DNA of 64,000 nucleotides, from assembly GCA_016191085.1 (NCBI GenBank), contig JACPPJ010000031.1, forward strand, positions 261 through 64,260, in the 5' to 3' direction. This document shows, one piece after another, positions 892 through 42,433 of the stretch (position 1 is the stretch's first letter; the number at the start of each line of letters is the position of its first letter). The notes beneath the pieces were generated by a model that was not told where the DNA came from, searched no databases, and saw only the letters and a list, made by a program, of their open reading frames with translations. The DNA comes from Acidobacteriota bacterium. GTDB taxonomy: Bacteria > Acidobacteriota > Terriglobia > 2-12-FULL-54-10. The position numbers and the translations under genes are program-made.

Positions 892-2082
892 ATGCCGAAA
901 CCCTCTCCGAAACGGCTCCGTTGTGCGGCTTCCCGCACCAAAATCCTACTGTGGACCGCGGTACTGCTGGCTTCGGCGGCGCCTGCAATCAGCGTCGGCG
1001 AGGCGCAATCCAGCGCGCCGATTCTCCAAAATGCACCACAACGCCGGCCAGCCATCTCTCGGGCCGAGTTCTCTGAGATGGTGCGACTGTTCGCCGAGGA
1101 AGAGGGAAGCTTTTTCTCCGACAATTTTGTATCCAACGAGACGGGCTATCTCCACGTCATAGGTAAGCTGAAGCGATTGGGGGTAAGCGGCGGCGCTTAC
1201 GTCGGCGTGGGTCCGGAGCAGAACTTCACGTATATTTCGAAAATCCGTCCCGAGATTGCTTTCATTGTGGACATTCGGCGCGGGGCCATCATCCAGCACC
1301 TGATGTACAAGGCGATTTTCGAGTTGGCCCCCGATCGCTCGCGATTCCTATCGCTCTTGTTCAGCAAACCGCTGGAAGGGAAGTTTGTTCCGGGGCGCGA
1401 CGCTTCTGCCGGAGAATTGGTGCAGTATTTCACGACTACTCCTTCGCAAGACGACCTCTTCAATCAGAATCTCGCTACGATCCGCAAGACCATTGAAAAA
1501 GGTTTCGACATTTCCCTTTCGCCGCACGACGAGCAGTTGCTGAACCGCGTCTATAACGCCTTTCGCGAGGCGAACCTGCGCATCTCCACGCGCTGGTCGA
1601 GCGGAGCCTGGTATGGAGGATTCCCCACCTTGAAGGATCTGTTTCTGGCCACGGATCTAAGCGGCAAGAACGGCAACTTCATAGCCACGCATGCAGACTA
1701 TCAATTCTTGCGCAATATGCACAAAAACAACCGCATCGTCCCAGTCGTCGGCGATTTCGCCGGCAAGAAGGCCCTGGCGGTCGTCGGCCACTATTTGAAG
1801 GAGAACGGCTATACGGTCTCGGCATTTTATACCTCGAACGTAGAGCAATACCTTTTTGGAGATCAGGTCTTCGATAATTTCGCCGAGAACGTCCGCAGAC
1901 TTCCCATCAATGAGAAGAGCGTGTTCATCCGTGCAGCGCGCGGCGGGCGGCGGTACCGCAATTTCCGAATGACCACCGTGTTGCAGAAAATCTCCGTCTT
2001 CCTCAAGGATTTCGATGAGGGCGCTTACACCGATTACGGCGCCTTGGTCACCACGCATCACATCTTCGGAGACGAACCATGA
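892..2082 (+). CDS. Secreted hypothetical protein, tandem paralog 1 (Rossmann/methyltransferase-like G-x-G and acidic beta-2 motifs)
   Basis: The long ORF is 784..2082. The internal ATG at 892 gives a signal-peptide-like N-terminus (MPKPSPKRLRCAASRTKILLWTAVLLASAAPAISVGEA). It is strongly similar to the next ORF (…EEEGSFFSDNFVSNETxYLHxxxKLKxLGVxGGAYxGVGPEQNFTYIxKxRPxIAFIVDIRRGA…). I cannot name the family. Confidence 0.7.
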   Translation: MPKPSPKRLRCAASRTKILLWTAVLLASAAPAISVGEAQSSAPILQNAPQRRPAISRAEFSEMVRLFAEEEGSFFSDNFVSNETGYLHVIGKLKRLGVSGGAYVGVGPEQNFTYISKIRPEIAFIVDIRRGAIIQHLMYKAIFELAPDRSRFLSLLFSKPLEGKFVPGRDASAGELVQYFTTTPSQDDLFNQNLATIRKTIEKGFDISLSPHDEQLLNRVYNAFREANLRISTRWSSGAWYGGFPTLKDLFLATDLSGKNGNFIATHADYQFLRNMHKNNRIVPVVGDFAGKKALAVVGHYLKENGYTVSAFYTSNVEQYLFGDQVFDNFAENVRRLPINEKSVFIRAARGGRRYRNFRMTTVLQKISVFLKDFDEGAYTDYGALVTTHHIFGDEP

Positions 2083-3263
2083 CATTGAGCTTGCGTTGCG
2101 GACCGCTGTTGCTGGCAGCCTCATTGGTTTTGGTCAACGGCCTGTTCGGAAGCCTGGCGGCGCAGAACACACCTGCTGCGCGTGCCGTCACGAAGCGATC
2201 TGTCACAGCCAACAAAGCCATAACGGCTGCGGAATTCTCGCGCATAGTGCGCTATTTTTCCGAAGAAGAGGGTAGCTTCTTTTCCGACAACTTCGTCTCA
2301 AACGAGACGGCTTATCTGCACATCGTAGACAAGCTGAAGGAACTGGGAGTAGCCGGCGGAGCCTACATCGGAGTCGGCCCGGAGCAGAACTTCACTTATA
2401 TCGCCAAGGTCCGGCCCAAGATCGCGTTTATCGTTGATATCCGCCGCGGTGCCATGATTCAGCACCTCATGTACAAGGCCCTATTCCACATGGCGTCGGA
2501 TCGTGTGCACTTTCTGTCTCTCTTGTTCAGTAAGCCGCTGCAAGGGGAGGCGCCGGGCCGCGATGCCTCGGCGACGGAGTTGGTGGACTACTTTAACAAT
2601 GTAGCCACGGAGGACAAGGCGTACGAGGAGACCTTGGCCGCTCTCCGCAACATGCTCGAGCAAGATTTCGAGTTCCCCCTTTCCGCGCGTGACGGCCAGA
2701 TATTAGAGCACGTCTACAGCGCTTTTCAGCGTGGCAATTTAGATATCTCGTTCCGGTTTGCGGGAGCAATGGGCGCTTGGTACGGCGGGTTTCCAACTCT
2801 GCGTGATCTGATGCTGGAGAAAGACCTCCGCGGCAAACAAGGGAATTTTTTGGCCAGCGAGAATGATTTTGGGTTCATCCGCGACCTGCACCGCAAGAAC
2901 CGCATCATCCCCGTGGTGGGCGACTTCGCCGGCTCGAAAGCTTTTGCAGTGCTGGGTGATTATCTGAAAGAGAACGGCTACACCGTTTCGGCATTCTATG
3001 TTTCCAACGTGGAGCAGTTTCTGTTCGGCGATCGCGTATTCGGCGCGTTTGCAGAAAACGTGCGCAGGCTGCCGATTAACGAGCGCAGCGTGATCATTCG
3101 CTCGCTGCGGGTCGGAGCGGGTCACCCCGCCCATGTTCCAGGCCATCGCATGGCCACCGTCTTGCAGAAGATGCAAGTCTTCCTCGACGATTTCGACGCA
3201 GGCCGCTTCCCAGATTATTGGAGCCTCGCCGTCACCGATTTCATCACCGGCAACGAACCATGA
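2079..3263 (+). CDS. Secreted hypothetical protein, tandem paralog 2
   Basis: A 394-aa ORF with an ATGA start/stop overlap with the upstream paralog. It has a hydrophobic N-terminal signal and is collinear with paralog 1 along its whole length. Confidence 0.75.
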   Translation: MTLSLRCGPLLLAASLVLVNGLFGSLAAQNTPAARAVTKRSVTANKAITAAEFSRIVRYFSEEEGSFFSDNFVSNETAYLHIVDKLKELGVAGGAYIGVGPEQNFTYIAKVRPKIAFIVDIRRGAMIQHLMYKALFHMASDRVHFLSLLFSKPLQGEAPGRDASATELVDYFNNVATEDKAYEETLAALRNMLEQDFEFPLSARDGQILEHVYSAFQRGNLDISFRFAGAMGAWYGGFPTLRDLMLEKDLRGKQGNFLASENDFGFIRDLHRKNRIIPVVGDFAGSKAFAVLGDYLKENGYTVSAFYVSNVEQFLFGDRVFGAFAENVRRLPINERSVIIRSLRVGAGHPAHVPGHRMATVLQKMQVFLDDFDAGRFPDYWSLAVTDFITGNEP

Positions 3264-6222: not shown

Positions 6223-7620
6223 ATGCTCCGACTGTTACGCTTCTCTTCCGCGAGTGCACTCGTGTTGGTACTCAGCTCACTCCTTGGCGTGGGCACGTGG
6301 GTATCGCTGACCGGCAACACCCTACCCGCTGTCATGTACCGCGCGCCTTTGCCGCCTACAGGGTCTCCGCAACTGGTTTCTGTTGGGCTGCTGCCGCAGG
6401 CCCAAACCGAGGGCGAGATGTGCGAGTGGGTTCCGGCCAGCAGCCAGGAGCGGCTCGTGGCTATACCGCAGGAGAGGATGGCACGGACATCCACCGCAGC
6501 GGCCGAAGAAACCGGCCGAACCGCCGTATTGATAGAGCGCGCGCCACAACGAGTCATCAAGGATCCGTATCCGACCTACAGCGCGGTAGCGCTGGACCCC
6601 ATTTCGCGTGAAGTCGTTTTGCAAGACGAGAATCTGTTCCAGATCGTGACGTTCGATCAGAACGCCAACACTCCTCCAACGGCAAACTTCACCGAGCCCA
6701 AGCGCATCATCGGCGGCCACAACACGAAAATCGAATTCAACTGCGCGCTCTACGTTGATCCAAAGAACGGAGACATTTACTCCGTCAACAATGACACGCT
6801 GGACACGCTGGTCATCTTTGACCGCTCTGTCAGAGGAGACCAACCGCCCACACGCGAGCTCCGCACGCCCCATCGCACCTACGGAATTGCCGTCGATGAA
6901 GGGCAGAATGAGATGTACCTTACCGTGCAGGACCCGCCCATGGTGGTGATCTACGACAAGAACGCGATAGGCAACGACAAGCCGAAGAGAGTGATTCGCG
7001 GCAACAAAACCCGCCTGCAAGATGCGCACGGAATCGCGCTTAACAAGAAGGGCGGCTTGATATACGTGGCCAATTATGGAAACTACGCCCAGTACAGAGA
7101 CGGCGGCGGCAACAACCTGCCTGGGCGCAGCGATGACGACATGATCCGGGGCAGCGGCAAGTTTGCACCGCCGTCGATTGCCGTTTTCAAAATCGATGCC
7201 ATGGGCGACACGGCTCCCATCGGCCTGATCCAAGGGCCAAAGACAATGCTCAATTGGCCCGCTCACCTGTTCTATGATGAACAGCACCAGGAGCTTTTCG
7301 TGGCCAATGACGGAGACCATTCGGTGTTGGTCTTCCGGTCCATGGATACCGGGGACGTCGCTCCTACTCGTTTCATCAAAGGACCAAAGAGTCAGATAAA
7401 GAATCCGACGGGCGTGGCGGTGGATTCGAAAACGGACGAGCTGTTCGTCTCTAATATGGGCAACCATTCAGCCACCGTTTACAAGCGCACCGCGTCGGGC
7501 GATGTGCCGCCGATCCGAACCATCCGCAGCGCGCCCTCAGGTGCACCCGCTCTCCAGATCGGCAATCCCGGTGCGGTAGCATACGACACCAAACGCGACC
7601 AAATACTGGTTCCCAACTGA
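6223..7620 (+). CDS. Secreted beta-propeller repeat protein (NHL/YncE/lactonase-like blades), N-terminal part; ends at an in-frame TGA (locus A)
   Basis: It has a signal/anchor N-terminus and repeated blades of the form PxRxIxGxxTxLxxPxGxAxDxxxxELxVxNxxxxSxxVF. It is paralogous to 30424..31875 and 32049..33416. Confidence 0.8.
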   Translation: MLRLLRFSSASALVLVLSSLLGVGTWVSLTGNTLPAVMYRAPLPPTGSPQLVSVGLLPQAQTEGEMCEWVPASSQERLVAIPQERMARTSTAAAEETGRTAVLIERAPQRVIKDPYPTYSAVALDPISREVVLQDENLFQIVTFDQNANTPPTANFTEPKRIIGGHNTKIEFNCALYVDPKNGDIYSVNNDTLDTLVIFDRSVRGDQPPTRELRTPHRTYGIAVDEGQNEMYLTVQDPPMVVIYDKNAIGNDKPKRVIRGNKTRLQDAHGIALNKKGGLIYVANYGNYAQYRDGGGNNLPGRSDDDMIRGSGKFAPPSIAVFKIDAMGDTAPIGLIQGPKTMLNWPAHLFYDEQHQELFVANDGDHSVLVFRSMDTGDVAPTRFIKGPKSQIKNPTGVAVDSKTDELFVSNMGNHSATVYKRTASGDVPPIRTIRSAPSGAPALQIGNPGAVAYDTKRDQILVPN

Positions 7621-7641
7621 GTAGCTCACCCGCAGATTGCG

Positions 7642-7665
7642 GCCTTCGCCAGGATGGCGAAAGGC
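7642..7665 (+). promoter_or_regulatory. Candidate recoding (SECIS-like) hairpin 3' of the TGA at 7618-7620
   Basis: Sequence gcc-ttcgcca-GGA-tggcgaa-a-ggc: 10 bp with a 1-nt bulge and apical GGA, with the loop 31 nt after the TGA. Equivalent hairpins sit at the same offset in the two paralogs. Confidence 0.4.
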
Positions 7666-8475
7666 GGAGATGCTCCCCAGCGCGTGATATTCGGCCAGGC
7701 TACCAACCTCAGCCGAACCATGCATGACATCCGCTACAGCGCCAAGCGCGATGAGATCTATGTGACCAATCCGTTCGGACAAGCGGTCTTAGCGTTCCGC
7801 GGCACCGCAAGCGCCAACGAGGCGCCGATCCGCGTCATCCAAGGACCCAAAACGCAGCTCGGCAGCGAGGATACCCTGGAGATCGATGATATACACGATG
7901 AGATCCTGATTCCCACCGAGGATCGGATCCTGGTTTATCCAATTGATGCGAACGGCGACATCGCGCCGCTGCGCGTCATCAAGCCGGAGAACAATTACTG
8001 GAGAACTGGCGGCGGCATCGCTGTGGATCCTATCCACAACGTATTAGTGACCGACGGAACACTGCCCGGAGAGGAAACCATTGCCAGCGGACGCGCTGCG
8101 CGCGCCAATCGCCGCGATAGTATTCTGATCTTCGACCGCACCGCAAACGGCGAGGTCAAGCCGCTGCGTGTCATCCGAGGGCCTCGGACCGGCATCAAAG
8201 CGATACGCCAGATGCAGATCTATCCGAAGAACGGGTATATCGTGATCGCGCAGATAACCGATGGCGCTATCGCGGAGCCGGAGGGGACGTTTGTCGGTGT
8301 CTGGAGCATTAACGACAGCGGAGATGTCCCGCCGCGCTGGAAGATTGAAGGCAAGCCTGGCAATGGTATGAAGAAACCGCGTGGCGTCGCATTGAACCCA
8401 AAGCACAAGGAATTAATCGTCTCCGATATGCGACTCAACTCCGTCCTGACGTACTATTTCCCGGAGATGTTCTAA
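7654..8475 (+). CDS. Beta-propeller repeat protein, C-terminal part (locus A); conserved coding sequence actually begins at 7621, right after the TGA
   Basis: The ORF-track ATG is at 7654. The 33 nt upstream (VAHPQIAAFAR) are in frame and conserved in the paralogs. The blades continue through to the C-terminal YYFPEMF. Confidence 0.8.
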   Translation: MAKGGDAPQRVIFGQATNLSRTMHDIRYSAKRDEIYVTNPFGQAVLAFRGTASANEAPIRVIQGPKTQLGSEDTLEIDDIHDEILIPTEDRILVYPIDANGDIAPLRVIKPENNYWRTGGGIAVDPIHNVLVTDGTLPGEETIASGRAARANRRDSILIFDRTANGEVKPLRVIRGPRTGIKAIRQMQIYPKNGYIVIAQITDGAIAEPEGTFVGVWSINDSGDVPPRWKIEGKPGNGMKKPRGVALNPKHKELIVSDMRLNSVLTYYFPEMF

Positions 8476-29589: not shown

Positions 29590-30423
29590 TCAGAATATCT
29601 CCGGGAAGTGATACGTCATTACGGCATTGACGTATTTATCCGAGACAATTACTTCCTTAGTCTTTGGCACCACCGTGATGCCGCGCACCTGCCGCAGCAT
29701 CTGGTTCGGGCCTCCTATCATCCACCGCGGTGGAACGTCGCCGTTGTCGGTTTCACTCCACACGCCAACCCAGTTGTTGGGAGACGATTTCTCCCGGCTG
29801 GGCATTCCGGCCAGAATCATCTTTGTCGGCGGGTAGACGGTGATCAGGGCTGTGAGCAGGATCTTGCTTTTGGGACCGAAGATCTGCGCCTTGGGCTTGA
29901 CGTTGCCGTTGTCCGTCCGGTTGAAGATGAGAATGTGGCCGTTTCTGCCGCTCTCTACGGCGCGCTCGTCTCCCTTCCGGGGTCGCTGGCCCGAAGCAAT
30001 GAGCAGATTGTTGACCGGATCGACAGTCAGAGCAGTGGCGCCCAACATTGTGTCAGGCCCCTTGATGGTGCGGATCGGTTTCACATTGCCCTCAGCGTCA
30101 CTGGGAAAAACCAGGATGGTGTCCTCCAGCGGAATGAAGACCTCTTTGTGAATCGGATCGAGGGCGAGCCTCGCCGGAGTGGTCATCTGCGTATCGGGAC
30201 CCATGATGATGCGGATCGGCTTCTCGTCTCCGTTCGCACCGCCGCGGTAGGTCATGATCGCCTGGGCATAGAACTGCGGGATGACGATCTCATCCGTGAT
30301 GGGGTTGTAGGCCATGTCGTGGATCGTGCGGGTGATCGCCGAATTCTGACCTGCGATTGAACGGGTGGGCTTGGCATTTCCGTTCGCCAACCTGGCGAAT
30401 GCCGCGATCTGCGGATGAGCCAC
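29590..30423 (-). CDS. Beta-propeller repeat protein, C-terminal part (locus B); begins at the GTG directly abutting the upstream TGA
   Basis: It starts (V)AHPQIAAFARLANGNAKPTRSI…, is collinear with 7621..8475 and 33417..34223, and ends …YHFPEIF. Confidence 0.8.
   Translation of the reverse strand: MAHPQIAAFARLANGNAKPTRSIAGQNSAITRTIHDMAYNPITDEIVIPQFYAQAIMTYRGGANGDEKPIRIIMGPDTQMTTPARLALDPIHKEVFIPLEDTILVFPSDAEGNVKPIRTIKGPDTMLGATALTVDPVNNLLIASGQRPRKGDERAVESGRNGHILIFNRTDNGNVKPKAQIFGPKSKILLTALITVYPPTKMILAGMPSREKSSPNNWVGVWSETDNGDVPPRWMIGGPNQMLRQVRGITVVPKTKEVIVSDKYVNAVMTYHFPEIF
30373..30403 (-). promoter_or_regulatory. Candidate recoding (SECIS-like) hairpin 3' of the TGA at 30424-30426 (minus strand)
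   Basis: The minus-sense RNA reads ggcat-ttcgcca-GGU-tggcgaa-cggaa-atgcc: a 7-bp upper stem, a 5-bp lower stem and an apical GGU. Confidence 0.4.
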
Positions 30424-31875
30424 TCAGTTGGCGACGAGCAACTCGTCGCGCTTGCTGTCCCAGGTCAGCGTGTGCGGATTGCCCATCATGGGAGCCGGAG
30501 CCTCGATGGGCCCGCTGCGGATGACGCGCAGCGGCGGTGCATCGCCGGAAGCGCCCAGCTTGTACACGGTTGCCGTGTGGTTGCCGAAGTTGGCCACCCA
30601 GAGCTCCTGATTCTTCAGGTCAGCGAAAACGCTGGTCGGATTCTTGATCAACGTCTTGGGTCCCTTCAGGACACGGATCGGAGCCACATCGCCGTTCGCA
30701 TCAGCCTTGAACACCAGCACCGAATCCACCGGATCGTTCGCCACATACAACTCGCCGCGTTCATGATCAATGCTGAGCGCGGTGGGCCAGTTGAGCTGTG
30801 TGCGCGGTCCCTGGATGACCCGGATCGGCGGGGTATCCCAGCTAGCGTCGCGTGGATACACCGTAATGGAAGGCGGCATGAACTTGCCGGAGCCTGGCAC
30901 TGCATCGTTGCGGCCAACCGGCCAGTTGTCTCTGCCGATGCCGCGATTCAGCGTACCGCTGTACTTGCCGGATGCGGGCCGTTTGTGGACGTTTACCGAA
31001 CCCCAGTTGCTGACGTAAATCTGGTCCGTCTTGGGATTATATGCAATGCCATGGGGATCAGCCATGAGAGTACGCGGACCTTGCAGCGTACGAATGGGCG
31101 AGTCCTTACCCGTCGCCGTCTTTTTGAACGTCACCACGGCGGCATCGTCCTGGACGGTCAGCATCAACTCCTGCGTCCTCTCGTCCACCGCGACTCCAAA
31201 CGTGGCCATCGGCGTATTGAGATAGCGCGCCGGCTTAGCGTTGCCGTTTGCGCCGTGGGGAAACACAGCCATCTTGCCGAGCGTATCGTTATTCACGGCG
31301 TAGATGTCGCCGTTGGCGGGGTCGATATAGAGAGAGCATTGGAACTCGATCTCGGTATCCTCGCCGTGGATCATGCGCTTGGGCTCGCTCAGCTTGGCAT
31401 TGGGCGGAGTGTTCTCGAGGCGGTCATAAGCGACGATGCGAAACTTGTTCTCATCCGTCATGAGCACTTCATTGTGGATGGGGTCAACCGCAACGGCGCT
31501 GAAGGCACCCCAGGGGTCATTGATGACTCGGATCGGTTTCCGTCGTGACGCGGCGAGCTTTTCTGCTTCGGTCACATCCGCGGCGGGCGGCGCAAATTGC
31601 TGCTGGAATGAAGCGAACAATGACGAGTTGGCGGCGCTGGCCGGTTCCCACTCGCACCTTTCACCATCGGCTTGCGGCAGCGGCTCAACCGAAACTAATT
31701 GTGGCTGTCCTGTGGCCTTTTGTGCTGGTCTCAATTGACCGCCCGCGCCCCAGAGTACAACCGTAGCAATGAGCGCGAGGAGAGCTAATATGCCGAGTCC
31801 GCCCGCCCTGTTTCGAAACAAACGTACACGCGCCATTCGTATTCCTCCTTTAATCCCAGCCGCTCCGCTATTCAA
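30424..31875 (-). CDS. Secreted beta-propeller repeat protein, N-terminal part; ends at an in-frame TGA (locus B)
   Basis: 483 aa with a signal/anchor, the conserved QPQLVSVEPLPQADGERCEWEPAS segment and seven blade-like repeats. It ends …DSKRDELLVAN-TGA. Confidence 0.8.
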   Translation of the reverse strand: MNSGAAGIKGGIRMARVRLFRNRAGGLGILALLALIATVVLWGAGGQLRPAQKATGQPQLVSVEPLPQADGERCEWEPASAANSSLFASFQQQFAPPAADVTEAEKLAASRRKPIRVINDPWGAFSAVAVDPIHNEVLMTDENKFRIVAYDRLENTPPNAKLSEPKRMIHGEDTEIEFQCSLYIDPANGDIYAVNNDTLGKMAVFPHGANGNAKPARYLNTPMATFGVAVDERTQELMLTVQDDAAVVTFKKTATGKDSPIRTLQGPRTLMADPHGIAYNPKTDQIYVSNWGSVNVHKRPASGKYSGTLNRGIGRDNWPVGRNDAVPGSGKFMPPSITVYPRDASWDTPPIRVIQGPRTQLNWPTALSIDHERGELYVANDPVDSVLVFKADANGDVAPIRVLKGPKTLIKNPTSVFADLKNQELWVANFGNHTATVYKLGASGDAPPLRVIRSGPIEAPAPMMGNPHTLTWDSKRDELLVAN

Positions 31876-32048: not shown

Positions 32049-33416
32049 ATGCATTGCAATTCGTCTGGAAAGGCTCTTCTGACCATCGTCGCGGTTCTAA
32101 TCGCAACGGGCGGCTTGTGTCTGGTATCCGGAACTCAATTTCAATTCGGCAAAGACCGCCCCAACGGCCAGCCGCGATTGATTGCGATTGATCCGCTGCC
32201 GCAAGCCGACGGTGAGGTTTGTGAGTGGCAACCGGCGAGCTTCAGCGCGCCGCAGGGGCAGGCCGGCACATCCTCTCCCTCATCTGCAGCAGACGAGGCG
32301 AAGAAGTCGGAGGTGGAGAAGCGCAAACCAATCAGGACCATTCGCGACCCTTACGCGGCATACAGTTCCGTGGCAGTGGATCCCGTCCACAATGAGGTGG
32401 TGCTGACGGATGAGAACCTTTTCAACATTCTAGTTTACGACCGCCTGGCGAATACTCCTCCTAACGCCAAAATGACCGAGCCCAAACGCATGATCGGAGG
32501 GCTGAATACCAAAATTGAGTTTCAGTGCGGGCTCTACATCGACCCGACGAACGGCGATATTTTCGCAGTGAACAACGACACGGTGGACACGTTGGTCATC
32601 TTCAACCGGCAGGCCAAGGGCAATGTGCCGCCTACGCGCGAGCTGTACACTCCACATGGAACGTTCGGTATCGCCGTTGACGAGCAGGCTCAGGAAATGT
32701 ACTTGACGGTGCAGCACGACAGCGCGGTGGTGGTATACAAGAAGTACGCTACGAAAAATGACTCGCCTCTGCGCCTGTTGCAGGGCGACAATACCATGCT
32801 GGCAGACCCGCACGGCATCGCCGTTGATCCGAGGACCAATGTGATCTTCGTGGCCAATCACGGCGCGACTCACTCGGTGGATGGGAAACTGAGCGAACAC
32901 ACAAGGCGGCCGAATTTCCCCTTGGAGCGAGCGTTTGCCGTGCCCGGATCGGGCCGCAGCCTGCCTCCTTCCATCACCGTGTACGAAAAGAACGCGTCGG
33001 GCGACACCGCTCCGATACGCGTGATCTCCGGTCCGAACACACGAATGAATTGGCCCTCCGGCCTGGCCGTGGATTCTGATCGCGGCGAGCTTTACGTTGC
33101 AAACGATATGGATGATTCGATCCTGGTCTTCGACATCACTGCCGAAGGCGACGCGGCGCCGAAGCGCGTACTGAAGGGGCCGGCAACCATGCTCAAGAAT
33201 CCTACTGGCGTGTTCCTCGATACGAAGAACGACGAGCTGTGGTCCGCGAATTTCGGGAATCACACCGCGACAGTGTTCAAGCGGACGGCATCCGGCAACA
33301 CACCGCCGTTGCGCGTGATCCGCAGCGGACCTACCAACGAGCCATCGCTCGGCATCGGCAACCCGCACCCGATTGCGTACGACAGCAAGCGCGAGGAGAT
33401 TCTGGTTCCCAACTGA
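32049..33416 (+). CDS. Secreted beta-propeller repeat protein, N-terminal part; ends at an in-frame TGA (locus C)
   Basis: 455 aa with a signal/anchor, the QPRLIAIDPLPQADGEVCEWQPAS segment and blade repeats. It ends …DSKREEILVPN-TGA. It is transcribed divergently from locus B. Confidence 0.8.
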   Translation: MHCNSSGKALLTIVAVLIATGGLCLVSGTQFQFGKDRPNGQPRLIAIDPLPQADGEVCEWQPASFSAPQGQAGTSSPSSAADEAKKSEVEKRKPIRTIRDPYAAYSSVAVDPVHNEVVLTDENLFNILVYDRLANTPPNAKMTEPKRMIGGLNTKIEFQCGLYIDPTNGDIFAVNNDTVDTLVIFNRQAKGNVPPTRELYTPHGTFGIAVDEQAQEMYLTVQHDSAVVVYKKYATKNDSPLRLLQGDNTMLADPHGIAVDPRTNVIFVANHGATHSVDGKLSEHTRRPNFPLERAFAVPGSGRSLPPSITVYEKNASGDTAPIRVISGPNTRMNWPSGLAVDSDRGELYVANDMDDSILVFDITAEGDAAPKRVLKGPATMLKNPTGVFLDTKNDELWSANFGNHTATVFKRTASGNTPPLRVIRSGPTNEPSLGIGNPHPIAYDSKREEILVPN

Positions 33417-34223
33417 GTGGCGCACCCGCAGATCGCGGTCTTCGCCAGGATGGCGGATGGAAACGCGGCGCCCACTCGAAAGATTGAAGGACAGAAAACT
33501 CTCCTCGGACGCACCATGCACGCGATCGCCTACGATGAGGTTCACGATGAGTTCATGGTCCCGCAACAGTTCGCCCAGGCAATTCTGACTTTCCGCGGCG
33601 CGGCAAGGGGCGAAGAGGCTCCGGTGCGCGTCATTCAAGGCTCTAAAACCCAGCTTGTCTCCCTGGACCGGCTGGCCTACGACCCCGTGCATGGAGAAAT
33701 CTTCGTGCCCGAAGGTGAAAAGGTACTGGTGTTTCCGCGCGCCGCCAACGGCAACGTTGCTCCCGTGCGCGTGCTGGGCGGCAAGGGCTCCTCATTACGC
33801 GCCAGCGCTGCTGCCGTGGACACAGTGCGTAATCTGCTGGTCGTGATGGGAGGCGAGCGAAACGATCCGCGGTTTGAGATTTACAACCGCACCGATGAAG
33901 GCAACGCTAAGCCCCTGCGTGTGATTGGCGGCCCCAAGAGCGGGTTCCGCCAACTGGGCGGCCCATTTGCCGTGTATCCGCCGAAGGGCTGGATCATCGC
34001 TTCGGATCGCGGACACGGAGAGCTGGTTTCCGACATAGCGTACGTGGGCGTCTGGAGTGTGGAAGACAACGGCGATGTGCCGCCCCGCTGGAGGTTCGGC
34101 GGACCGAACGGAGTGTTGAAGATGCCCCGCGGTATAACCCTTGATCCCAAGAACAAGAACGTCCTTGTCAGCGATAAGCGTCTGAATGCGGTGATGACTT
34201 TCGCCTTCCCAGAGCTGTTTTAG
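33417..34223 (+). CDS. Beta-propeller repeat protein, C-terminal part (locus C)
   Basis: It starts at the GTG immediately after the TGA, reading (V)AHPQIAVFARMADGNAAPTRKI…, and ends …FAFPELF. Confidence 0.8.
   Translation: MAHPQIAVFARMADGNAAPTRKIEGQKTLLGRTMHAIAYDEVHDEFMVPQQFAQAILTFRGAARGEEAPVRVIQGSKTQLVSLDRLAYDPVHGEIFVPEGEKVLVFPRAANGNVAPVRVLGGKGSSLRASAAAVDTVRNLLVVMGGERNDPRFEIYNRTDEGNAKPLRVIGGPKSGFRQLGGPFAVYPPKGWIIASDRGHGELVSDIAYVGVWSVEDNGDVPPRWRFGGPNGVLKMPRGITLDPKNKNVLVSDKRLNAVMTFAFPELF
33435..33466 (+). promoter_or_regulatory. Candidate recoding (SECIS-like) hairpin 3' of the TGA at 33414-33416
   Basis: Sequence gcg-gtc-ttcgcca-GGA-tggcgga-tggaaa-cgc: a 7-bp upper stem including one G-U pair, an apical GGA and a short lower stem. 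Confidence 0.35.
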
Positions 34224-34553: not shown

Positions 34554-35009
34554 GTGCATATGAACATTCTTTTGGCCATTGACGATTCAAAGTACTCTGA
34601 GGCGGCTGTCCAAGCGCTCATCAACCAATTCCGGCTCCAGGACACCACAATTCGCGTCGTGCATGTTACCGAGCCGATTACGTTCGCCTTCCCACCGGAA
34701 ATAGCCGCTGAATATGCCGCAACACCTCACTTAACCTTGCTGCGACAGGACCAGTTGAAGAAAGCCGAGGCTTTGGTTCAAGCTGCGGCCGCCAAGCTGC
34801 GCTCGGCGAACTTTAATGTCGAAACAGCGGTGTATGAGGGGGACGTCAGGTCGGAGATCGTCGACTTGGCATCCCAATGGCCTGCCGACCTGATCGTTGT
34901 GGGTTCGCACGGGCGTAAGGGCCTAAACCGCTTTCTCATGGGCAGCGTTTCGGAGTTCGTAGCGCGTCATGCGCCTTGTTCCGTAGAGGTGGTCCGCGCA
35001 GCGGCGTGA
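34554..35009 (+). CDS. Universal stress protein (single Usp domain)
   Basis: ILLAIDDSKYSEAAV…LIVVGSHGRKGLNRFLMGSVSEFVARHAPCSVEVVR. Confidence 0.85.
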   Translation: MHMNILLAIDDSKYSEAAVQALINQFRLQDTTIRVVHVTEPITFAFPPEIAAEYAATPHLTLLRQDQLKKAEALVQAAAAKLRSANFNVETAVYEGDVRSEIVDLASQWPADLIVVGSHGRKGLNRFLMGSVSEFVARHAPCSVEVVRAAA

Positions 35010-35095: not shown

Positions 35096-36559
35096 TTGGA
35101 GGCTCGTTTCGTGTTAACCTTTCTGCCATCCCGCTCCCACCTGGATTCCTTCTATCATTTGGATGCGGATCCTGTCCCGACAGCCTGTCGCGGTCTGGCT
35201 TGCTTTGTCGCGCGACACCTGAATGCGCCGGCATGGCGGGAAGCGACGGCCCACAGCGAGCGCGTATACTGCCTGGGCAAGTGTTATGCGGCCCCGGCAT
35301 GCACGGACGAGGATCAGCGCCCCCGCGTCGAGGTGCACGCATCCACACCGGTGCTTCTAGGCCGCGTGCTTGGCGGAGGCGCTCCCGGTATTGACCGCTA
35401 TATAAAACGCCAGGGTTATCGAGCGCTCGAGCTGGCGTTGCGGCAGTCTCCTGAGCACTTAATTCAGACTATTTCCGAATCGGGTCTGCGAGGGCGCGGC
35501 GGCGCCGGGGTCCCCACCGGTCGCAAGTGGGATGCCGTTTTTCGCGAGCGATCAAACGAGAAGTTCGTGATCGCCAATGCCGATGAAGGCGATCCAGGCG
35601 CGTTCATGGAGCGCGTTCTGCTGGAAGAGGACCCGCACTCGTTGATCGAAGCGATGGTGATTGCCGGATTCGCGGTAAACGCCGCCCGGGGAATCATTTA
35701 TCTCCGCAAAGAATATCCGCGAGCGGCAGTCATGCTGCGCGAAGCCATCCAGGATGCACGGAGAAAAGGGATTCTCGGCTCGAACATCCTGGGCAGGCGG
35801 TTTTGCTTCGACGTGGAACTCGCAATCGGGCGCGGCAGCTATGTCTGCGGAGAAGAATCGGCTCTGCTGAACGCGCTGGAAGGAAAGCGCCCCGAACCCA
35901 GGCAGCGCCCGCCTTATGCCAGCGAAAGCGGCCTCTATGGCAAGCCGACACTCATCAACAACGTGGAGACATTCGCGAACGTCCCCTGGATTATTCTCAA
36001 CGGGGCCGACGCGTACAGCAGGCTGGGGTGTTCGACCAGCAAAGGGACCAAGTTGATCTCGCTGAACTCGCTGTTCCGGCGGCCCGGGCTGTACGAAGTG
36101 GAATTCGGCGTGACCGTCCGGCACGTAGTAGAACAGATCGGCGGCGGCCTCGCGGGCGAGTTGAAAGGTGTGATTATCGGAGGGCCGCTGGCGGGAATTG
36201 TTCCGCCGCACCTGCTCGACACTCCATTCGCGTTCGAGGAGTTGCGCTTGATCGGCGCCAGCGTGGGCCACGGCGGCATCGTAGCTTTCGACGAACACAC
36301 CAGCATTCGCGAGCTGATCCATCATATGTTCGAGTTTGGCGCTTATGAATCATGCGGCAAATGCACGCCGTGCCGCGTAGGCACGCGCCGCATAGAAAAG
36401 CTGTTCGCTCGCGCCTGGTTCAACGAAGCAGAAGACGCCGAGTGGCGCGAGATCGTTCGCGCGATGTCCCTAACCAGTTTCTGCGGAATGGGGACGGGGC
36501 TCGCCGAATTCGCGCAGAGCGCGATTCGTTATTATGCCGAGGAGCTTGCATTATGCTGA
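35096..36559 (+). CDS. NuoF-like NAD(H)-binding flavoprotein subunit (formate dehydrogenase beta / NuoE-F fusion type)
   Basis: GLRGRGGAGVPTGRKW, ANADEGDPGAFMER and a C-terminal 4Fe-4S motif ESCGKCTPCR. The N-terminus carries C-x4-C … C-x3-C, resembling a NuoE-type 2Fe-2S motif. Confidence 0.85.
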   Translation: MEARFVLTFLPSRSHLDSFYHLDADPVPTACRGLACFVARHLNAPAWREATAHSERVYCLGKCYAAPACTDEDQRPRVEVHASTPVLLGRVLGGGAPGIDRYIKRQGYRALELALRQSPEHLIQTISESGLRGRGGAGVPTGRKWDAVFRERSNEKFVIANADEGDPGAFMERVLLEEDPHSLIEAMVIAGFAVNAARGIIYLRKEYPRAAVMLREAIQDARRKGILGSNILGRRFCFDVELAIGRGSYVCGEESALLNALEGKRPEPRQRPPYASESGLYGKPTLINNVETFANVPWIILNGADAYSRLGCSTSKGTKLISLNSLFRRPGLYEVEFGVTVRHVVEQIGGGLAGELKGVIIGGPLAGIVPPHLLDTPFAFEELRLIGASVGHGGIVAFDEHTSIRELIHHMFEFGAYESCGKCTPCRVGTRRIEKLFARAWFNEAEDAEWREIVRAMSLTSFCGMGTGLAEFAQSAIRYYAEELALC

Positions 36560-39228
36560 GCGTGACAATCAACGGCATACAATGCAGGTGTCCCGAGGGC
36601 GTCAGCATTCTGGACGCTCTGAACTTGCTGAATATTAAGATGCCGTCGCTCTGCCATGATGACCGGCTGGAACCGTACGGCGGCTGCCGGTTATGTATAG
36701 TGCAGGTGAAGGGACACGATCGCCCCGTGCCTGCGTGCAGCACGCCGCTTGCCGAGGAGATGGAGATCGAAACGCATAGCGCGGAGATCAAAGAGCTCCG
36801 CCGGACGCTGCTGAAGCTGTTGGCGCATTCGTACCCCGCCGAGGCTGTGAAGGCGTTCCCCGATAAACCGTTCCATCGGTATCTGAAGAGCTATGGTGTG
36901 GAGGACGCTTGTGTTCACGGCTATTACCCCACGCTTGCGGACGAATCGCATCCATACATTCGTGTGGATATGTCGCGGTGCATGTATTGCCAGCGCTGCG
37001 TACGCATATGCCGGGAAGTACAAGGACAGTTTGTGTGGCAGGTGTGGGATCGAGCAGACGCCACCAGGATATTGCCCGACTCGGGCACCAATCTCGCCGA
37101 AAGCTCCTGCGTGGCCTGTGGCGCTTGCGCCGATACTTGTCCAACGGGTGCCCTGGAAGACAAGACACTTCTCTTGAGCGGCTCGGCATTGGCGGGCACG
37201 AGCACGACGTGCCCCTATTGCGGCGTGGGATGCGAGATGGAAGTGCGCACGCGCGGCAGCCGCATCGTAGCAATCAAGCCAGTGGTCAGCGCCCCGGTGA
37301 ATCGCGGGCACTTGTGCGTGAAGGGAAGGTACGCCTTTGAATTTGTGCACTCGCCAGACCGGATCACCGAACCGATGATCCGGCGCAACGGCGAATGGAA
37401 GCCTGTATCGTGGGAGTACGCCATTCATACTGTGGCCGAGGCGCTCCGCGAAAGCATCCAGCGCGAAGGTCCTCAAAGTACCGCGATTCTGGCTTCGGCG
37501 CGGGCAACGAATGAGGAGAACTACCTGACTCAGAAATTTGCGCGCGTGGTGCTGGGCACCAACAACGTGGATTGCTGTGCGCGGGTCTGTCACGCTCCAA
37601 CGGCTACCGCGATGAAGGCGATGCTTGGGACAGGCGCGGCTACCAACTCGTTTAATGATATCGAGCGGGCGCGGACGATTCTTGTATGCGGCGCAAACCC
37701 GACCAGCAACCATCCCGTGATCGGCGCGCGCATCAAGCAGGCGGTGCTGAAGGGCACCAGCCTGATCGTCATTGATCCGCGGCGGATCGAACTGGCCGAC
37801 TACGCCGACCATCACCTGCAAGTTCGGCCGGGCACCAACGTTCCGCTCCTGAACGCCATCGCTCACACCATTGTTGAAGAGAGCCTCTTCGACAGAGAAT
37901 TCATGCGGGAGCGTGTCTCGGATTGGGAGAGCTTCGCGCGGTTTATCCAGAACTTCGCGCCGGAAAAAGTGGCGACCGTTTGCGGTGTGAACGCTCAGTG
38001 CATCCGTGAGGCGGCACGCCTATATGCCACGGAAAAGCCCAGCATGATCATCCACGGGCTGGGCGTCACGGAACACACTCAGGGTAGCGAAGGCGTGATG
38101 CTGCTCGTCAATCTCGCTCTGCTTACCGGGAACGTCGGTAAGCGCGGCGGGGGTGTGATGCCGCTGCGCGGCCAGAACAACGTCCAGGGCGCTGCTCACA
38201 TGGGCTGCGATCCCGGGAGCCTTACGGGCGCAGTCGCTTTTGACGACGGCAAAGCCTTGTTTGAAGACGCATGGAGCACGTCGCTTCCTTCAACACCCGG
38301 TCTGAATTTGCTGCAAATGATGGATGCGGCTGCTGAAGGCAAGCTGAAGACGCTGTGGGCCATTGGATTTGACGTATTTCTCACGAACCCGCAGGCGCAC
38401 GCGACGTCCAGGGCGCTCTGGGAAATGGACTGCGTAGTCGTTCAGGATATGTTCCTGAACGAAACGGCGCGCGAATTCGGTTCGGTGTTCCTGCCGGCGG
38501 TATCATCGTTCGAAAAGGACGGTACATTCATGAACGCCGAACGCCGCGTCCAGAGGGTGCGGCAGGTGATTGAACCCCTTGGGCAAGCGAAAGCAGATTG
38601 GGAAATCTTATGCCTGGTGGCGCGCGCTATGGGTAAAGCCAACTTGTTTCCGTATACCAGCGCCGAGCAGATCTGGAATGAGATTCGGACAGTATGGAAG
38701 GCGGGCGCGGGTATCTCCTATGGCCGGCTGGAACAGGGCGGTTTGCAGTGGCCCTGCCCCGATGAAACGCATCCCGGCACAGAGATCCTGCACACCCAAT
38801 GCAGCTCTCCAAAAACGATAGCGCTCCGCGAAGTGCAATATCGTCCCACTCCTGAGAGAGTGGCGAAGGACTTTCCATTTCTGCTGATAACGGGTAGAGC
38901 GGCGTATCAGTTCAATGCCGGGACCATGTCGTCGCGCACACCCAACGTGGAACTCTGGCCAACGGATGTTCTGGAGATGGCGGCAGCCGATGCGCAACGG
39001 CTAGGCGTACGCAGCGGCGAACGGGTTCGCATCCGAAGCCGCTTCGGAGAGGCCGAACTGCCGCTGCAGATCAGCCCTGCCCTTCGCCCTGGCGAGTTGT
39101 TCACCACCTTTCACTCTCCGCAGGTCTTCTTGAACCACGTTACCAGCCCCTACCGCGACACGTTCTCCGACACTCCCGAGTACAAAGTCACTGCCGTCAC
39201 GGTCGAAAAAGTCAGCGATTCCGCATAA
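36553..39228 (+). CDS. fdhA: Formate dehydrogenase alpha subunit (molybdopterin, NuoG-like N-terminus), cysteine type
   Basis: The ATG at 36553 overlaps the upstream stop (ATGCTGA). The N-terminal 2Fe-2S/4Fe-4S cysteine clusters and a molybdopterin oxidoreductase core are present. The active-site segment is CCARVCHAPTA, with TGT at 37588-37590. Confidence 0.9.
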   Translation: MLSVTINGIQCRCPEGVSILDALNLLNIKMPSLCHDDRLEPYGGCRLCIVQVKGHDRPVPACSTPLAEEMEIETHSAEIKELRRTLLKLLAHSYPAEAVKAFPDKPFHRYLKSYGVEDACVHGYYPTLADESHPYIRVDMSRCMYCQRCVRICREVQGQFVWQVWDRADATRILPDSGTNLAESSCVACGACADTCPTGALEDKTLLLSGSALAGTSTTCPYCGVGCEMEVRTRGSRIVAIKPVVSAPVNRGHLCVKGRYAFEFVHSPDRITEPMIRRNGEWKPVSWEYAIHTVAEALRESIQREGPQSTAILASARATNEENYLTQKFARVVLGTNNVDCCARVCHAPTATAMKAMLGTGAATNSFNDIERARTILVCGANPTSNHPVIGARIKQAVLKGTSLIVIDPRRIELADYADHHLQVRPGTNVPLLNAIAHTIVEESLFDREFMRERVSDWESFARFIQNFAPEKVATVCGVNAQCIREAARLYATEKPSMIIHGLGVTEHTQGSEGVMLLVNLALLTGNVGKRGGGVMPLRGQNNVQGAAHMGCDPGSLTGAVAFDDGKALFEDAWSTSLPSTPGLNLLQMMDAAAEGKLKTLWAIGFDVFLTNPQAHATSRALWEMDCVVVQDMFLNETAREFGSVFLPAVSSFEKDGTFMNAERRVQRVRQVIEPLGQAKADWEILCLVARAMGKANLFPYTSAEQIWNEIRTVWKAGAGISYGRLEQGGLQWPCPDETHPGTEILHTQCSSPKTIALREVQYRPTPERVAKDFPFLLITGRAAYQFNAGTMSSRTPNVELWPTDVLEMAAADAQRLGVRSGERVRIRSRFGEAELPLQISPALRPGELFTTFHSPQVFLNHVTSPYRDTFSDTPEYKVTAVTVEKVSDSA

Positions 39229-39407: not shown

Positions 39408-40484
39408 ATGAGTTACTCTCAAGCTGTAAGAGTTTGCATCGAGTCCCGGCGTGAAGAGTGGCGGCCCGGATACACACGGAAAGGAGCGATCTCGATGCCT
39501 GCAAGACAGCTCGTGGGAGCAGCCGAACATCAATTGTTGCGCGATCCCCGTCGGCTCGACATACAAACCATCCTATGTCCGGTGGACTTCTCCGACTTCT
39601 CGTTTCGCGCGCTGACCTATGCCGCGTCAATCGGCCGGCATTTCTGCTCGCGGATTTTCGTTCAGCATACGATTGACCTGCCGCCCAAGTCATACCTCGG
39701 AGAGATTGAGCAGGTGGCAACTCGCGAAGTTCTGGAAGCGGAACTCCAACGCGCCAGCGTTCCTCCCCCACAGAAACGGGGCTCTCGCGCCGCAGATTTC
39801 CCGGAAGTTCATTTGCTCGTGAACGGCGGCGACGTGGTGGCACATATTCTCGAAAGCGCTGACAGGTACCATGCGGATTTGCTGGTGATGGGTACTCACG
39901 GGCACAAGGGTTTCAACCGTTTCATCCTTGGATCGGTAACAGAGCGAGTGGTGCGTCAGGCGCGCTGTCCAGTGCTGGTGGTGTCGCGGCCCGAGCGCGG
40001 ATTTGTAGACGAGGAAGAGCCAGAAAAAATCGACCTGAAGACTATTTTGCTCGCGACCGACTTCTCGCCTCATTCGGACCGGTCGCTGGCGTACGCGTTG
40101 AAGTGGGCCTCAGAGTGGCCGGCGAAGCTAGTGCTGTTTCATGCGGTCGAGCAAACTCCCCCGGAGATCCGCGGCCGAGTGGATCTGTTTCCTGAATACA
40201 ATCCATATTTCGAACAGGAGCTTGCGCAAGCCTGGCAGACCATCCAAACGCAGGTTCCGGCGGACCTAGCTGGTAGATGCGAGGTGTACTGCGAGGTGCG
40301 GCACGGCGACGCGCGGCAGCAGATACTGCAAGTGGCGGCGCAGCTACGAGCTAATTTGATTGTTATGGGGTGCCGCGGGGGACGCTACTCAGGCCCCGTT
40401 GCGACGTGGGGATCGACCGTCTCTGCCGTGGTCAGGGACGGCCGGTTTCCGGTGCTCACGGTCAAGCACCTGCGCGAGCGTTAA
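39408..40484 (+). CDS. Tandem universal stress protein (two Usp domains); start possibly the internal ATG at 39495
   Basis: Two Usp-type repeats are present (…LLVMGTHGHKGFNRFILGSVTERVVRQARCPVLVV… and …LIVMGCRGG…VVRDGRFPVLTV). Confidence 0.8.
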   Translation: MSYSQAVRVCIESRREEWRPGYTRKGAISMPARQLVGAAEHQLLRDPRRLDIQTILCPVDFSDFSFRALTYAASIGRHFCSRIFVQHTIDLPPKSYLGEIEQVATREVLEAELQRASVPPPQKRGSRAADFPEVHLLVNGGDVVAHILESADRYHADLLVMGTHGHKGFNRFILGSVTERVVRQARCPVLVVSRPERGFVDEEEPEKIDLKTILLATDFSPHSDRSLAYALKWASEWPAKLVLFHAVEQTPPEIRGRVDLFPEYNPYFEQELAQAWQTIQTQVPADLAGRCEVYCEVRHGDARQQILQVAAQLRANLIVMGCRGGRYSGPVATWGSTVSAVVRDGRFPVLTVKHLRER

Positions 40485-41554: not shown

Positions 41555-42433
41555 GTGAACATGCTACCGATTTCCCGAATACTGGCGCCGGTGGACTTCT
41601 CCGACCGCTGTCTGCGGATGATGCCCTACGTCCGCTCCTTGGCTCAGACCTACAATGCGGAACTGATCCTCCTGCACGTCGTGAATCCTTTCTATGGAAT
41701 TCCGCCGACCGGAATCTCCGGACCTGCCATGATCCCGATTTCCCCAACGATCTTACAGGACAAGGCCAAGGAACTGGATGCATTTGCAGTGTCGGAGCTT
41801 CAGGGGCTTCCAGTGCGCCGGTTCGTTTACGAGGGCGATACGACCGCTCAGATCGTGGAGTTTGCTCGCGCCGAACGGGTGGGCTTGCTCGCCATGCCCA
41901 CGCATGGCTACGGCGTGCTGCGCCGCTTCCTGATTGATTCGGTGACTGCCAAGGTATTACACGATGTCTCTTGCCCTGTTTTGACGGGAGTACATCTCGA
42001 GAATCATTCGCCCGGCAGAGAAGGGATCTTCAAAAATATCCTATGCGCGGTAGACCTGGGACCGCAGAGCCAGGAAGCGTTGTCCTGGGCTGCACAACTC
42101 GCCTCCGACTTCGGCGCCAAGCTGGGTATTGTTCATGCTATGAGCGCGCTAAATCCCGGAGTAACGCTTCTGCTCTCGCCCGAATTTGAGTTGCAGATGG
42201 CAAAGCCTGTGCGCGCCGAGCTGCAGAAATTGCAAGTCGCCGCAGGAGCGGAGAAAGCGCCAATCTATATAGAAGAAGGCGATGCGCCCAAAACCGTTGC
42301 GACCGTAGCCAAAGGGATCGGCGCAGACCTGCTGGTTATCGGGCGCGGCACCAGGGAGGATGACACCGGACGTTTGCGTACGAACGCATATGCTATCATC
42401 CGGCAGTCGCCCTGTCCGGTGATCAGTATCTGA
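41555..42433 (+). CDS. Tandem universal stress protein
   Basis: ILAPVDFSDRC… and ILCAVDLGPQS… are two Usp halves. A …LLVIGRG… segment is present, and the protein ends …QSPCPVISI. Confidence 0.8.
   Translation: MNMLPISRILAPVDFSDRCLRMMPYVRSLAQTYNAELILLHVVNPFYGIPPTGISGPAMIPISPTILQDKAKELDAFAVSELQGLPVRRFVYEGDTTAQIVEFARAERVGLLAMPTHGYGVLRRFLIDSVTAKVLHDVSCPVLTGVHLENHSPGREGIFKNILCAVDLGPQSQEALSWAAQLASDFGAKLGIVHAMSALNPGVTLLLSPEFELQMAKPVRAELQKLQVAAGAEKAPIYIEEGDAPKTVATVAKGIGADLLVIGRGTREDDTGRLRTNAYAIIRQSPCPVISI

Follow-up and report, generated by a model that had tools for sequence, protein, structure and literature searches.

A candidate SelB-type selenocysteine insertion sequence follows in-frame TGA codons in a beta-propeller gene family of soil Acidobacteria

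Introduction

The window analyzed in this report—64,000 nucleotides (nt) of contig JACPPJ010000031.1, from an Acidobacteriota bacterium of the class Terriglobia—contains three paralogous genes, here named A, B and C, in each of which one long reading frame is divided by an in-frame TGA followed at a fixed distance by a hairpin. This hairpin, which we call hairpin 2 because a smaller one precedes it, is predicted, with a probability of roughly 0.88, to be a working selenocysteine insertion sequence (SECIS) of the bacterial, SelB-type kind, by which the TGA would be read as selenocysteine (Sec, U). The three window copies taken alone are weak evidence, and the case depends on the comparative data presented below.

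Results

Three paralogs with a common layout

The genes, the TGA codons and the two hairpins are located as follows, with hairpin nucleotides numbered from the T of the TGA.

6223..8475, + strand: paralog A gene, a single frame broken only by the in-frame TGA, encoding a predicted tandem beta-propeller (NHL-repeat) protein of about 750 amino acids (aa)
7618..7620, + strand: in-frame TGA of A, predicted Sec codon, in the motif ILVPN-U-VAHPQIAAFARMA; aligns with Cys in TGC homologs
7630..7642, + strand: hairpin 1 of A (nt 13-25), CCGC-AGAUU-GCGG
7643..7663, + strand: hairpin 2 of A (nt 26-46), SECIS candidate, with core stem 7645-7650 / 7656-7661
29590..31875, - strand: paralog B gene, read through the TGA; start codon uncertain
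30424..30426, - strand: in-frame TGA of B
30402..30414, - strand: hairpin 1 of B, CCGC-AGAUC-GCGG
30381..30401, - strand: hairpin 2 of B (nt 26-46), UUCGCCA-GGU-UGGCGAA, loop 30389-30393
32049..34223, + strand: paralog C gene, read through the TGA
33414..33416, + strand: in-frame TGA of C
33426..33438, + strand: hairpin 1 of C, CCGC-AGAUC-GCGG
33439..33459, + strand: hairpin 2 of C (nt 26-46), UUCGCCA-GGA-UGGCGGA with one U-G pair, loop 33447-33451

The three proteins, about 750 aa each, show 48-51% pairwise identity and are best conserved in the stretch ILVPN-[TGA]-VAHPQIA[AV]FAR[ML]A. Their genes have a common layout, an in-frame TGA and then UUCGCCA-GGN-UGGCGRA, and the sequence of this hairpin at a fixed distance 3' of each TGA is exactly as described in an earlier note on this DNA, including the U-G wobble of C and the 31-nt interval that separates the TGA from the loop G (G35, the 32nd nt after the TGA). 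In A, the loop A-G-G-A-U occupies 7651-7655 and its invariant G is 7652. Each TGA is followed by a single occurrence of the 15-mer TTCGCCAGGNTGGCG, at nt 28-42, and the pattern TTCGCCAGG(A/T)TGGCG has exactly three sense-strand matches in the window (7645-7659 on the + strand, 30385-30399 on the - strand and 33441-33455 on the + strand), all of them 25-41 nt past a TGA that divides one long frame; shuffled sequence gives a mean of 1.0 match to the 15-mer pattern with two mismatches allowed.

Folded singly, the hairpin region (33-35 nt) has z scores against dinucleotide shuffles of -2.67 in A, -0.90 in B and -1.16 in C. Compared with synonymous recodings—in which the peptide is kept and codons follow the usage of the same genes—the p values for its stability are 0.03, 0.20 and 0.11, respectively, and the strict contiguous stems (7 bp in A) have energies of -8.1, -8.1 and -7.6 kcal/mol. 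Because the single copies are weak and the peptide F-A-R-x-A-[K/N/D/E/G] fixes several of the pairs by itself, we gathered relatives.

TGA alternates with cysteine codons

A profile search returned 2915 homologs, and a genome scan 79 loci, all but one titled as metagenome-assembled genomes (MAGs) of Terriglobia, Acidobacteria, Solibacteraceae or Ca. Sulfopaludibacter. While the first motif search of these 79 loci yielded 87 gene copies that all have TGA, a metagenome scan seeded with Cys forms added 61 TGA and 13 TGC copies, and five further Cys genes came from individual look-ups. After duplicate removal, there were 136 Sec-type (TGA) and 16 Cys-type (TGC) sequences, and the ungapped alignment of the former is referred to below as A5. 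At the protein level, most full-length homologs (about 720-770 aa) read ILVPN-C-VAHPQIAVFARLA and shorter database entries end at ILVPN, the N-U-VAHPQ of the TGA forms corresponding to N-C-VAHPQ in the Cys homologs. The genetic code is not reassigned, since TGA is the ordinary stop in 13 of the 30 Pfam-supported genes of the window.

These data bear on whether the TGA is simply a real stop that separates two genes or marks a pseudogene, with the GTG that follows it restarting a separate C-terminal protein. ORF (open reading frame) callers do split the gene in public records, and the codon after the TGA—the Val codon at 7621-7623 in A, 30421-30423 (- strand) in B and 33417-33419 in C, columns 4-6 of A5—is GTG in 124 of 135 Sec genes, compared with 42% of Val codons in the background, while 11 of the 16 Cys genes have GTC. 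Nevertheless, copy A has GTA rather than GTG, no Shine-Dalgarno-like sequence is evident just upstream of this codon in the three window copies, and in all 130 genes that could be evaluated the frame remains open past the conserved TGA, with a median of 273 further codons. Moreover, the Cys homologs are single chains of 720-750 aa in which the site lies inside one highly conserved motif, and the AlphaFold model of a Cys homolog—mean predicted local distance difference test (pLDDT) 88, predicted template modeling score (pTM) 0.84—is continuous across it, all of which makes a genuine stop very improbable. Neither hairpin accounts for the GTG bias, which may reflect an influence of the neighboring codon on how the UGA is decoded or on release factor 2.

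The exchange between Sec and Cys has been repeated, with at least eight switches on a tree of 147 sequences, some of them between proteins with 86-89% identity. For example, the Sec genes L087 and L089 (TGA) are nested in a Cys clade (L080-L094, TGC), to whose reference member their proteins are about 86-87% identical; their hairpin differs from that of this reference by two or three substitutions and has the loop CGUGC instead of AGGNU. A further contrast of this kind is offered by L099 (TGC) and L102 (TGA). We also observed one homolog, P0010 (known at the protein level from a JGI contig), with Trp where the others have Sec or Cys (VPN-W-VAHPQ), which would mean that TGA has become TGG or that an artifact arose in sequencing or calling.

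Hairpin 2 is conserved as RNA in the TGA forms only

The consensus structure computed by RNAalifold on A5 consists of two helices, one with pairs 14-24, 15-23 and 16-22 (hairpin 1) and the other running from 26-46 through 33-39 (hairpin 2). The stem of hairpin 2 has 8 bp and a 5-nt loop, or 9 bp and a 3-nt loop if A34 pairs with U38, and its six core pairs (28-44 through 33-39) are complete in 132 of 136 Sec genes versus 3 of 16 Cys genes. Taken as a whole, the structure has 97.3% of its cells paired, compared with 32-61% when the partners are slid, and its covariation score of 0.229 is reached in none of 500 shuffles (0.132) and exceeds the maximum of 0.136 in the slid controls; cells with double changes number 94, versus 33 in the control.

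Individual pairs make the same point. Pair 27-45, which links the third bases of codons 9 and 15, occurs as AU in 36 sequences, CG in 35, GC in 30 and UA in 8. It is Watson-Crick in 80% of cases against the 28% expected for independent columns, its mutual information is 0.92 bit, and on a neighbor-joining tree of the flanking sequence each of the two columns has changed independently at least 25 times. In pair 30-42, C-G has become U-A in nine sequences through two synonymous changes (TTT with GCA), and in pair 31-41, G-C has become C-G in three sequences in which Ala>Pro and Ala>Gly occur together. The covariation thus goes beyond what codon conservation explains, which is the outcome that the earlier note had set as a check.

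Codon choice is equally telling. The Arg-12 codon is AGG in 127 of 132 Sec genes, compared with 6.7% elsewhere in these genes, and against backgrounds of 41% and 37% in these genes, Ala-11 is GCC in 130 of 131 cases and Ala-14 is GCG in 123 of 133. In Cys genes, Arg is encoded by CGN in 13 of 16 (CGC in 9) and by AGG in only 1, and the Ala codons are mixed. Mean hairpin 2 energies are -11.8 kcal/mol for the Sec genes, -6.9 for the Cys homologs and -6.1 for the synonymous recodings, so that in the family the fold is more stable than the peptide alone would make it, although copies B and C do not stand out clearly when set singly against shuffles.

It could still be argued that conservation is purely at the protein level and that the hairpin is a by-product of the peptide F-A-R-[LM]-A-[KNDE] with no function as RNA. 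This caveat, already raised in the earlier note, is justified to the extent that F-A-R-x-A-[KNDEG] alone fixes four stem pairs (28-44, 29-43, 31-41 and 32-40), that Cys homologs keep the same peptide, and that 8% of synonymous recodings produce a qualifying hairpin at the same place. It fails for the pairs at synonymous sites, which are kept only in the TGA forms: Cys forms with the same peptide are without the fold, third-codon positions 18 nt apart covary in four Watson-Crick types, and even the amino acids change in a compensating manner (Ala>Pro with Ala>Gly). We therefore consider a protein-only origin of the hairpin highly unlikely.

The strand on which the structure forms can also be read from the alignment. 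TTCGCCA-GGN-TGGCGAA is an inverted repeat, and the opposite strand matches the pattern with two mismatches, as would be expected of a DNA palindrome for a dimeric DNA-binding protein or restriction-modification enzyme, or of a structure in an antisense transcript. However, sense-strand G-U wobbles are frequent (pair 29-43 in 88, 26-46 in 40 and 28-44 in 11 of the 136 sequences); on the other strand these are A.C mismatches, which break the DNA symmetry, so it is the sense-strand RNA that folds and a palindromic or antisense structure is excluded by this criterion. As the element is, in addition, tied to the TGA at a fixed distance and lost in TGC homologs, we give this explanation next to no weight.

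The conserved lower part of the stem is not the one previously proposed. The earlier note had built a different lower stem for each copy, but the A-type pairs are found in 11 and the B-type pairs in 6 of the 136 relatives, and the C-type stem (nt 22-24 with 51-53), although possible in 60 of 136, shows no covariation and competes with the better supported hairpin 1. We rejected all three; the actual conserved extension consists of the contiguous pairs 27-45 and 26-46.

Fit to the bacterial SECIS model

The loop of hairpin 2 is the part expected to meet SelB. G35 is invariant in the 136 sequences, 125 of which have the form A-G-G-N-U (AGGCU in 71, AGGUU in 44 and AGGAU in 10), and G35 is kept as well in the rare loops CGUGC, GGUCU, AGUCU, AGGUC, AGUUC, CGGGA, CGUGU and CGGGU. 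According to the bacterial consensus (bSECIS) of Zhang and Gladyshev, as restated in PMC13188914 (Fig. 2A), the loop has 3-9 nt and the stem 4-16 bp. The same source places a G within the first two positions of the loop, usually as N1-G-[G|U]-N-N2 where N1 pairs with N2, a spacing of 16-37 nt between UGA and loop, and a minimum free energy of -7.5 kcal/mol or lower. We applied this model in a strict form that accepts contiguous stems only. All four of its criteria are found together, at a spacing of 30-31, in 130 of 136 Sec genes and in 2 of 16 Cys genes, compared with 16% of synonymous recodings, or 8% if the hairpin has to lie at the same place. The SECIS-like character proposed in the earlier note is thereby supported, as is its statement that the distance lies within the range of bacterial search models.

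The two qualifying Cys genes, L160 and L164, retain a relic hairpin. In L160, a TGC is followed by the complete TTCGCCAGGTTGGCGGAA with every Sec-type codon choice, and this looks like a very recent Sec-to-Cys change. Since the peptide provides four stem pairs, the element is made or broken by two or three synonymous changes, and switches are frequent.

A second, smaller hairpin in the spacer

Between the TGA and hairpin 2 lies hairpin 1, which was overlooked in the earlier note and is Sec-specific. It spans nt 13/14-24/25 and has a stem of 3-4 bp. Its synonymous sites are strongly biased: CCG is used in 136 of 136 Sec genes and in 14 of 16 Cys genes (background 49%), and codon 8 is GCG in 132 of 134 Sec genes and in 9 of 16 Cys genes (background 37%). 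In three sequences its pair C16-G22 has become A-U, and sequences with Ala in place of Pro-5 encode it as GCG, so that both hairpin 1 pairs persist. On the strength of these codon choices, hairpin 1 is a second RNA-level constraint specific to Sec forms. We also considered it as a SelB site and rejected this because it fails the SECIS criteria: its loop begins 13 nt past the UGA, under the 16-nt minimum, the second position of its loop varies (112 of the 136 sequences have G there and 22 have A), and its short stem has an energy of only about -5 kcal/mol.

Two other codon biases were observed in this region, which fall in the spacer and the hairpin 1 loop and are unexplained by the pairs found. 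His-4 is CAT in 92 of 136 sequences (background 33%; columns 10-12 of A5, 7627-7629 in A) and Ile-7 is ATT in 112 of 135 (background 31%; columns 19-21, 7636-7638 in A).

The host protein family

The paralogs match the Pfam families NHL, Lactonase and SGL, with NHL repeats and lactonase-type propeller blades, and no NCBIfam family reaches its cut-off for them. The model of the Cys homolog is all-beta from about residue 107 to the C terminus, and a fold search of the PDB with it returned generic two-propeller proteins with a template modeling (TM) score of about 0.3, which suggests a tandem propeller and gives no hint of function.

Among the 80 best loci, in which family copies were counted, TGA copies number at least 17 in MAG JADFGZ01 (loci L006-L066), at least 8 in CBDCTS01 and at least 7 on the closed 3.76-Mb Terriglobia chromosome OZ240237.1, and several loci carry two copies within a few kb. 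Public records annotate the family as truncated "hypothetical" or "lactonase" fragments.

Near the N terminus, Cys-67 of A (6421-6423), in the motif G-E-x-C-E-W-x-P-A-S, is invariant in the three paralogs, and this C-E-W Cys, C72 of P0001, is almost without variation among 106 homologs. The residue is possibly a redox partner of the predicted Sec, although the AlphaFold model has low confidence there.

Genomic surroundings

Searching the window and its flanks for other in-frame TGA codons with a SECIS-like hairpin returned only further family members and out-of-frame noise. The window also contains ordinary housekeeping genes. After a NuoF-like gene (35096-36559) comes a formate dehydrogenase alpha-like gene (36352-39228) that reads ARV-C-HAPT where Escherichia coli FdhH has ARV-U-HGPS; as a long ORF, the latter overlaps its neighbor by 208 nt, and translation of it probably begins at the ATG at 36553. 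Three Usp (universal stress protein) genes, at 34554-35009, 39408-40484 and 41555-42433, are located in the 8 kb that follow paralog C downstream and flank the formate dehydrogenase-like genes and an alcohol dehydrogenase gene. Two adjacent DUF7790 paralogs (784-2082 and 2079-3263) have ends that overlap by 4 nt.

Discussion

The picture that emerges is of a hairpin that is kept as RNA in nearly all TGA forms of the family and is lost in most TGC forms. We propose that, with the ribosome at the UGA, the C-terminal winged-helix domains of SelB would bind the loop of hairpin 2, the invariant G35 and the next G or U serving as contact points, and that SelB would bring Sec-tRNA(Sec), so that translation would pass the UGA with selenocysteine and yield the complete 750-aa beta-propeller protein. 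Hairpin 1 would fold away 12-13 nt of the 22-nt spacer, and hairpin 2 would then reach the mRNA entrance with a spacing close to the usual one; this spacer-compacting role is purely hypothetical. If correct, the Sec-specific hairpin 1 suggests how bacteria tolerate long distances between UGA and loop.

Several points weigh against the prediction that hairpin 2 is a working SECIS. The Cys control set is small, with 16 distinct sequences, albeit from several lineages. Within the window, copies B and C are marginally stable alone, only A folds clearly better than shuffles, and the covarying pair 27-45 is mismatched in all three copies (C.A, A.C and C.U). The only formate dehydrogenase-like gene of the window is a Cys form (CHAP). 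None of selA, selB, selD and selC (tRNA-Sec) turned up in the 64-kb window or in the 0.86 Mb of related loci, which cover only a small fraction of each genome: used as tblastn queries, E. coli SelA and SelB had no match in the window or in any locus, and a tRNA/tmRNA scan of the window was likewise negative. Because the machinery was not found in the visible sequence, the Sec trait of the source genome is assumed. Finally, the loop begins 30 or 31 nt from the UGA in every member of the family, which is farther than in E. coli fdhF, as the earlier note had pointed out and where the distance is 18 nt, and longer than the approximately 20 nt usual for bacterial SECIS elements in general (PMC4605307).

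The missing machinery and the long distance, together with the Trp of the homolog P0010, are also what could be said for a hairpin that aids read-through or pausing independently of SelB, with a near-cognate tRNA (for Trp, Cys or Arg) reading the UGA as the ribosome is slowed or release factor 2 hindered. Against this, TGA alternates specifically with Cys codons, on each of the switches counted above, which is a signature of Sec, and the loop is of the SelB type, N-G-[G/U]-N-N with its invariant G, which a roadblock would not need; moreover, the phylum Acidobacteria includes Sec users. We regard SelB-independent read-through as improbable. The SECIS reading appears safe because hairpin 2 fits the textbook bacterial model, and we consider that the RNA element itself is very probably a canonical, ordinary bacterial SECIS and that what differs is the host family.

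What the host family represents is a separate and less certain matter. It has no entry among the 119 selenoprotein families of a 2026 catalogue (PMC13188914, Table 1), it is not mentioned in the main texts of deep-Sep or BSepDB (the comparison covering the main text of the latter and not its family table), and literature searches for a propeller selenoprotein found nothing. We put forward tentatively, as a possibility that falls short of even odds, that it is an uncatalogued family of tandem beta-propeller selenoproteins with an N-terminal hydrophobic segment, the motif PN-U-VAHPQ, 7-17 or more UGA paralogs per Terriglobia genome and a bipartite SECIS. If true, some soil Acidobacteria would far exceed the 3-4 selenoprotein genes that have been reported for their phylum, and the family would appear to be an overlooked one, missing from that catalogue, with gene callers splitting hundreds of genes at such TGA codons. 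As Terriglobia are abundant in soil and the copies per genome are many, their selenium demand and the size of their selenoproteome may be underestimated. In addition, the repeated switches between Sec and Cys and the relic hairpins make this family, in which the peptide pre-forms half of the stem, a useful data set on SECIS gain and loss.

Comparison with known systems

On the protein side, the family has Pfam matches and an all-beta fold in common with NHL, YncE and lactonase-type propellers, none of which is a listed selenoprotein family. On the RNA side, an Rfam scan of the whole 64-kb window returned no family at its gathering score, and a literature search with the loop sequence GCCGGUCUGGC was without a match, so that a possible resemblance to the Moorella SECIS was dropped.

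The hairpin of E. coli fdhF has a bulged U in its stem and a spacer of 11 nt. Its loop, UGCA-GGUC-UGCA, which the earlier note had cited, was confirmed by reading E. coli fdhF as a positive control, and the GGUCU found as a rare variant in L102 and L104 of our family can be compared with it. Common to fdhF and hairpin 2 are a small G-rich apical loop and a short G+C-rich stem after the UGA. Hairpin 2 nevertheless falls outside the fdhF type, given the position of its loop relative to the UGA and a consensus with no conserved bulge.

"Fossil" SECIS-like structures have been described in Cys homologs derived from Sec forms (PMC1794560). L160 and L164 likewise retain a hairpin, the difference being that in this family four stem pairs are already given by the peptide. 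With respect to the bSECIS model, the location in the coding region after a Sec-UGA, the 8-bp stem, the 3-5-nt A-G-G-N-U loop and the energy are all within limits. What sets the family apart from that model is a spacing at its long end and a spacer that, in place of a lower stem, contains a conserved hairpin of 3-4 bp.

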